Of a stretch of 64,000 bases of DNA, positions 9,055 to 10,701 are shown piece by piece. Under the pieces are notes generated by a model that did no database searches, was not told the origin of the DNA, and saw only the letters and a program-made list of their open reading frames with translations. The translations under genes were made by a program, and so were the position numbers. Within the stretch, counting starts at the first letter, position 1. The number at the start of each line of letters is the position of its first letter. This stretch comes from Escherichia coli (GTDB lineage Bacteria > Pseudomonadota > Gammaproteobacteria > Enterobacterales > Enterobacteriaceae), in the NCBI RefSeq assembly GCF_013315695.1, contig NZ_CP054353.1; one strand, written 5' to 3'.

Positions 9055-10701
9055 ATGAATGGCGCACAGTGGGTGGTACATGCGTTGCGGGCACAGGGTG
9101 TGAATACCGTTTTCGGTTATCCGGGTGGCGCAATTATGCCGGTTTACGATGCATTGTATGACGGCGGCATGGAGCACTTGCTGTGCCGACATGAACAGGG
9201 TGCGGCAATGGCGGCTATCGGTTATGCCCGTGCTACTGGCAAAACTGGCGTATGTATCGCCACGTCTGGTCCGGGCGCAACCAACCTGATAACCGGGCTT
9301 GCGGACGCACTGTTAGATTCCATCCCCGTTGTTGCTATCACCGGTCAGGTATCCGCACCGTTTATCGGCACTGACGCATTTCAGGAGGTGGATATTCTGG
9401 GGTTGTCGTTAGCCTGCACCAAGCACAGTTTCCTGGTGCAATCACTGGAAGAGTTACCGCGTATCATGGCCGAAGCGTTTGACGTCGCCAGCTCTGGTCG
9501 TCCTGGTCCGGTTTTGGTCGATATTCCAAAAGATATCCAGTTAGCCAGCGGCGATCTGGAACCGTGGTTCACCACCGTTGAAAACGAAGTGACTTTCCCA
9601 CATGCCGAAGTCGAGCAAGCGCGTCAGATGCTGGCAAAAGCGCAAAAACCGATGCTGTACGTTGGAGGTGGCGTGGGCATGGCGCAGGCAGTTTCGGCTT
9701 TGCGTGAATTTCTCGCTACCACAAAAATGCCTGCCACCTGCACGCTGAAAGGGCTGGGCGCAGTTGAAGCAGATTATCCGTACTATCTGGGCATGCTGGG
9801 AATGCACGGCACCAAAGCGGCGAACTTCGCGGTTCAGGAGTGCGATCTACTGATCGCCGTGGGCGCACGTTTTGATGACCGGGTGACCGGCAAACTGAAC
9901 ACCTTCGCACCACACGCCAGCGTTATCCATATGGATATCGATCCGGCAGAAATGAACAAGCTGCGTCAGGCACATGCGGCATTACAGGGTGATTTAAATG
10001 CTCTGTTACCAGCATTACAGCAGCCGTTAAATATCGATGACTGGCAGCAACACTGCGCACAACTGCGTGATGAACATGCCTGGCGTTACGACCATCCTGG
10101 TGACGCTATCTACGCGCCGTTGTTATTAAAACAACTGTCGGATCGTAAACCTGCGGATTGCATCGTGACCACAGATGTGGGGCAGCACCAGATGTGGGCT
10201 GCCCAGCACATCGTCCACACTCGCCCGGAAAATTTCATCACCTCCAGCGGCTTAGGCACCATGGGTTTTGGTTTACCGGCGGCGGTTGGCGCACAAGTCG
10301 CGCGACCGAACGATACCGTCGTCTGTATCTCCGGTGACGGCTCTTTCATGATGAATGTGCAAGAGCTGGGCACCGTAAAACGCAAGCAGTTACCGTTGAA
10401 AATCGTCTTACTCGATAACCAACGGTTAGGGATGGTTCGACAATGGCAGCAACTGTTTTTCCAGGAACGATATAGCGAAACCACCCTTACCGATAATCCC
10501 GATTTCCTCATGTTAGCCAGCGCCTTCGGCATCCCTGGCCAACACATCACCCGTAAAGACCAGGTTGAAGCGGCACTCGACACCATGCTGAACAGTGATG
10601 GGCCATACCTGCTTCATGTCTCAATCGACGAACTTGAGAACGTCTGGCCGCTGGTGCCGCCAGGTGCCAGTAATTCAGAAATGTTGGAGAAATTATCATG
10701 A
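9055..10701 (+). CDS. ilvG: Acetolactate synthase II large subunit, intact full-length form
   Basis: Uninterrupted 548-aa ORF with TPP-enzyme motifs. Confidence 0.95.

Follow-up and report, generated by a model that had tools for sequence, protein, structure and literature searches.

Introduction

That ilvG of Escherichia coli K-12 carries a frameshift has been in the textbooks since its description in 1981. The question raised by the locus studied here, which lies within a 64,000-nucleotide stretch of E. coli DNA (hereafter the window), is whether its ilvG is whole, and what a whole gene tells us of the strain from which the DNA came. E. coli has three acetolactate synthase (AHAS) isozymes, of which AHAS I and III are inhibited by valine while AHAS II is not, and in K-12, which is without AHAS II, valine causes isoleucine starvation (PMC8605374; bioRxiv 10.1101/2025.10.31.685768). 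Once the ilvG frame is restored, K-12 can grow at 1 mg/ml valine (PMC8605374). The frameshift is also polar on ilvEDA and lowers their expression, according to the portion of PMC8605374 that cites Parekh and Hatfield (1997). The K-12 allele is described as the exception (PMC8605374; bioRxiv 10.1101/2025.10.31.685768). The gene is intact in W, B and Crooks strains (PMC3032704); in B strains, ilvGMEDA expression is higher than in K-12, and the use of valine dipeptides is attributed to ilvG, which is intact there (PMC3446290). CFT073 needs ilvG to grow in urine (bioRxiv 10.1101/2025.10.31.685768).

Results

An uninterrupted reading frame for the AHAS II catalytic subunit

The feature under study is the following:

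9055–10701, plus strand: ilvG, full length, 548 codons plus stop; catalytic (large) subunit of acetolactate synthase (AHAS) II

A preliminary description of the window had put ilvG at 548 uninterrupted codons. Two readings agree on this: the list of open reading frames for window positions 8000–12500 gives an unbroken 548-codon frame with an ATG start, and independent translation of 9055–10701 returns 548 residues with one terminal stop. Re-inspection of the frame found no frameshift. By our own arithmetic, the chance that a frame of this length stays open is about (61/64)^548, or roughly 4e-12.

The protein scores 1071.5 bits against the NCBIfam equivalog NF006524 ("acetolactate synthase 2 catalytic subunit"; curated cut-off 738), and its residues 1–547 lie on profile positions 1–547 of 548. 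Three Pfam domains of the TPP enzymes, each covering its whole model, span residues 1–116 (PF02776, TPP_enzyme_N; the Pyr domain), 186–321 (PF00205, TPP_enzyme_M; the central domain) and 374–522 (PF02775, TPP_enzyme_C; the PP domain). The context of the catalytic glutamate, RHEQG, begins at residue 45 (Glu47), and the GDG cofactor motif is found at residue 427. In AF3 and MSB1_4I, two genomes nearly identical to the window, IlvG is WP_001012579.1, and its RefSeq coordinates match those of the window's ilvG. On score, domains, motifs and genomic context, the open reading frame at 9055–10701 is IlvG, a member of the NF006524 equivalog family.

The operon around ilvG

Within the window, ilvG is the first large gene in the order ilvL-ilvX-ilvG-ilvM-ilvE-ilvD-ilvA. 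The features flanking it are:

8817–8915, plus strand: ilvL, 32-aa leader peptide of ilvGMEDA, rich in Ile, Leu and Val
8936–8971, plus strand: attenuator terminator, a GC-rich hairpin followed by a U run
9002–9052, plus strand: ilvX, small peptide gene directly upstream of ilvG
10698–10961, plus strand: ilvM, 87 aa, small (regulatory) subunit of AHAS II
10981–15372, plus strand: ilvE, ilvD and ilvA, downstream operon genes, by annotation

The leader peptide (WP_001311244.1; 81.9 bits against NF007744, cut-off 59) is identical to the K-12 protein, and neither the ilvL gene nor the ilvL-ilvG spacer has a single nucleotide mismatch to K-12. The RNA of positions 8930–8972 folds at -22.2 kcal/mol (z = -4.23), and none of 200 shuffled sequences folds as well. 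The attenuator is absent from the plus-strand output of a simple terminator scan, which omits it because the hairpin has an internal mismatch. The ilvX product is WP_001387183.1 in AF3, MSB1_4I and K-12. IlvM (133.9 bits against NF008362, cut-off 68; Pfam ACT_5) is WP_000983255.1, the identical protein in all strains compared, among them K-12, CFT073, O157 and BL21. The ATGA overlap of ilvG and ilvM named in the preliminary description is present at 10698–10701, where the stop codon of the one and the start codon of the other share these four bases; from this arrangement and its genomic context, the two genes appear to be translationally coupled.

At the far end of the operon, ilvY (15369–16259, minus strand) converges on ilvA (13828–15372, plus strand) and overlaps its 3' end by 4 nt, where K-12 has a spacer of 51 nt. 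ilvY is 891 nt long in the window and 894 nt in K-12, and is the most divergent gene of the region, at 6.7% from K-12.

The K-12 frameshift site

The K-12 reference for the ilvG alignment was CV601gfp, a K-12 derivative. Its ilvG, of 1645 nt, is annotated as a "frameshifted" pseudogene, as expected from the preliminary description, which had contrasted the window with a broken K-12 allele and had proposed to align the two around the lesion. The site is as follows:

10027–10040, plus strand: K-12 frameshift site; the window reads TTA AAT ATC GAT GAC and K-12 TTA AAT CAA TGA (pairwise and multiple alignments)

K-12 is without the two bases AT found at window positions 10031–10032 (gene nucleotides 977–978, codon 326). 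As a result, K-12 ilvG reads AAT CAA TGA and meets a stop at codon 328, which leaves 661 nt untranslated. In the window the AT is present, and the gene is not of the K-12 frameshift type. The wild alleles of CFT073, O157:H7 TR01, BL21 and EC21Z-147 likewise have the AT dinucleotide (TTAAATATCRATGACTGG) and 548 codons. As judged from the alignment, K-12 would have lost one AT of a short ATAT stretch, and replication slippage is the probable cause. The lesion has been described as "two separate base pair insertions" (PMC3032704); in our alignments K-12 has instead lost 2 bp that every wild allele has.

Beyond the frameshift, the window's ilvG differs from that of K-12 at 70 further positions (4.26%), and the ilv region as a whole is 2.5–6.7% divergent. 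We considered local recombination or relaxed constraint as the source of the 4.3% divergence of ilvG and rejected both: the neighboring genes are equally or more divergent (ilvD, ilvA, ilvY, ilvC, ppiC and rep differ from K-12 by 4.2–6.7%, as much as ilvG or more), and the changes are overwhelmingly synonymous.

Two other differences from the K-12 annotation lie in the window. A gene for a PemK/MazF-family type II toxin (18364–18813, minus strand; WP_000996698.1), between ppiC and rep, is intact here and annotated as "frameshifted" in K-12, a second K-12 pseudogene that is whole in the window. Between aslA and hemY, AF3 and MSB1_4I encode a 118-aa "hypothetical protein" (WP_000764077.1; 44934–45290, minus strand) that the K-12 annotation lacks; the spacer between the two genes is of another size in K-12.

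Close relatives of the window and the IS4 in yigE

The nearest record is that of MSB1_4I (NZ_LR898874.1, reverse strand), from a human rectal swab taken in Australia. Over 64 kb, 5 SNPs separate the two, along with a small indel within the first ~84 nt of the window; the ilv operon shows no difference. AF3 (NZ_OZ547117.1), a blood culture isolate from the UK, is 99.955% identical over 60.2 kb and 100% identical in the ilv region; its structure differs from that of the window at yigE. The preliminary description had also placed an IS4 in yigE, and the element is there, complete:

60521–61946: IS4, 1426 bp, complete; splits yigE (region 60509–61958) with a 12-bp target duplication, CACCTTCTGCTG

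The remnants of yigE are annotated as pseudogene pieces of a "phosphodiester glycosidase family protein". In AF3, yigE carries an extra IS1, and its IS4 lies in the orientation opposite to that of the window.

The IS4-yigE junction of the window occurs in 19 of 5,426 complete genomes, and 16 other genomes, IAI39, VR50 and AF3 among them, have IS4 in the opposite orientation at the same yigE site. The carriers come from diverse lineages, which suggests that yigE is a recurrent hot spot for IS4 insertion.

Further observations concern the rest of the window. A complete rrn operon (298–5527, plus strand; 16S, tRNA-Glu, 23S, 5S, tRNA-Asp and tRNA-Trp) lies upstream of hdfR, and two of the five SNPs relative to MSB1_4I (482 and 3677) fall inside it; these would fit rRNA copy differences or assembly noise. 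Past the first ~84 nt, the window has no indel relative to MSB1_4I. hemX measures 1194 nt in AF3 (46773–47966 of extracted segment L004) and 1182 nt in MSB1_4I (2046–3227 of segment L011) and K-12; this 12-nt length polymorphism among near-identical strains may be a change in repeat number. A truncated "DKNYY family protein" pseudogene fragment sits at ~53085–53270 (minus strand), between cyaY and lptM.

Frequency of the K-12 lesion

At least 80% of the ilvL-ilvM region is covered in 5,423 of 5,426 complete E. coli genomes. An exact match to the K-12 lesion occurs in only 340 of the 5,426, a count that rests on one 60-nt probe centred on the lesion and covers that site alone. Another 4,468 genomes match the probe at lower identity, and the matches listed span 1–2 bases more than the query; 618 genomes are without a match to this short probe, though they hold the region. 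Five carriers of the K-12 probe sequence were sampled (ER1709, a K-12 strain, XL10-Gold, TP10-2 and MC1061). All five looked like K-12 derivatives; the record of TP10-2 names a human host, and the other four are plainly laboratory strains of K-12 descent. Intact ilvG is the norm in E. coli and the broken K-12 copy the exception, as was already known.

One genome showed a different lesion. In NCCP12480 (NZ_CP068680.1), a deletion has removed ilvM, ilvE and ilvD and joined a 5' portion of ilvG to a 3' portion of ilvA (locus 2851–5084 of extracted segment L003). Its YifB and IlvY are identical to those of K-12, and for this reason the strain is probably a laboratory delta-ilv derivative of K-12.

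Comparison with wild alleles and predicted function

The protein differs at 5–10 residues from those of the four wild alleles. By far the most nucleotide changes are synonymous; dN/dS is 0.047 against CFT073, 0.032 against O157, 0.053 against BL21 and 0.137 against EC21Z-147; by these ratios, the window's ilvG appears to have evolved under strong purifying selection. Ala308 is private to the window allele, while K-12 and the four wild alleles compared have Val. This substitution seems conservative, as are the few others that the allele carries, and at least two independent isolates share the protein.

Together with the ACT-domain protein IlvM, IlvG would catalyse the first common step of isoleucine and valine synthesis, and the resulting AHAS II would, on established biochemistry, escape feedback inhibition by valine. 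Because the ilvL peptide, the attenuator and IlvM are identical to those of K-12, it is reasonable to predict that AHAS II is expressed and functional and that growth is valine-resistant. The enzyme would then be made and active, the strain would grow with valine, and ilvEDA would be expressed without polarity of the K-12 type.

Discussion

Alternative explanations

We are highly confident that the ilvGMEDA operon in the window is an ordinary wild-type one from a natural E. coli, with a functional full-length AHAS II subunit predicted from its sequence. The preliminary description had left room for a K-12 derivative in which a second mutation repaired the ilvG frame and made the strain valine-resistant (an ilvG+ or "ilvO" revertant). 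Strains of this kind are known and easily obtained under selection, and those described carry a single-base deletion of T or G in the premature TGA within an otherwise K-12 sequence (PMC8605374). Removal of one more base from a gene already short of two would give 547 codons, all in K-12 sequence; the window's ilvG has the wild-type AT, a length of 548 codons and 70 other differences from K-12, for which reasons we reject this origin. Neither a K-12 background nor a compensating indel was found: the ilv region is 2.5–6.7% from K-12, and the window lies 5 SNPs from a natural isolate and carries IS4 in yigE. A K-12 revertant is thus so improbable as to be negligible. The chance is equally minute that a real frameshift has been masked by an artefact of assembly or consensus. 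Long-read assemblies do often contain indel errors, but the ilv operon is base-for-base identical in the independently assembled AF3 (UK) and MSB1_4I (Australia), and the site lies in an ATAT context and not in a long homopolymer.

An open frame could still encode an enzyme that is inactive or unexpressed, through missense changes or a regulatory defect, in which case the prediction of valine resistance would fail. Ala308, private among K-12 and the five wild alleles compared, speaks for this. Set against it are the distance of only 5–10 residues from alleles with demonstrated ilvG function (CFT073, B), the dN/dS of 0.03–0.14 with catalytic and cofactor motifs in place, the unchanged leader, attenuator and IlvM, and the occurrence of the same protein in two independent clinical or commensal isolates. 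We regard a silent or inactive enzyme as quite unlikely. Slightly less likely still is a role for ATAT at codons 325–326 as a recurrent slippage site, which would make ilvG a weak off/on contingency locus in natural populations, with K-12 as its best-known "off" variant. The five sampled carriers of the K-12 sequence all looked K-12-derived, and a run of only two AT units is very poorly suited to slippage. The reading we prefer remains that of an ordinary wild-type operon.

What the intact gene signifies

Of the origins offered in the preliminary description, non-K-12 stands and revertant falls; likewise, of "E. coli or Shigella", the relationship to MSB1_4I upholds E. coli and not Shigella. 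As a marker, intact ilvG does part of what was asked of it: it excludes K-12 and identifies nothing further, being the norm of the species. Its importance is confined to annotation and quality control, as a sign of origin in a natural E. coli and not in a K-12 laboratory strain. The predicted consequences are a valine-insensitive AHAS II that would confer valine-resistant growth, and expression of ilvEDA without frameshift polarity. By analogy with CFT073, the strain may also be capable of growth in fluids that, like urine, are rich in valine and poor in isoleucine. These predictions apply to the great majority of sequenced E. coli and add nothing new.

Comparison with known systems

The best match of IlvG to a solved structure is the large subunit of E. 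coli AHAS I, IlvB (PDB 6LPI; E = 2.3e-161 over residues 2–544), and no chain identical to E. coli IlvG was present among the solved-structure sequence matches. IlvB and the plant and yeast AHAS structures share with IlvG a TPP/FAD-dependent fold family. While the fold is common, IlvB belongs to a different isozyme, as AHAS I is valine-sensitive and AHAS II is not, according to the literature. The K-12 pseudogene, as found in CV601gfp, occupies the same locus with the same neighbors as the window's gene, and the proteins of ilvL and ilvX as well as IlvM are identical. Closest in kind are the wild-type genes of CFT073 (IlvG WP_001012593.1) and EC21Z-147 (WP_001012580.1). Both encode 548 aa, as in the window, from which the former differs by 5 amino acids and 36 nucleotides and the latter by 5 amino acids and 16 nucleotides. 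Residue 39 is Met in the window and Val in CFT073, and residue 308 is Ala in the window and Val in both. Both strains have the gene order ilvL-ilvX-ilvG-ilvM-ilvE and read LNIDDW at the K-12 site, as the window does.
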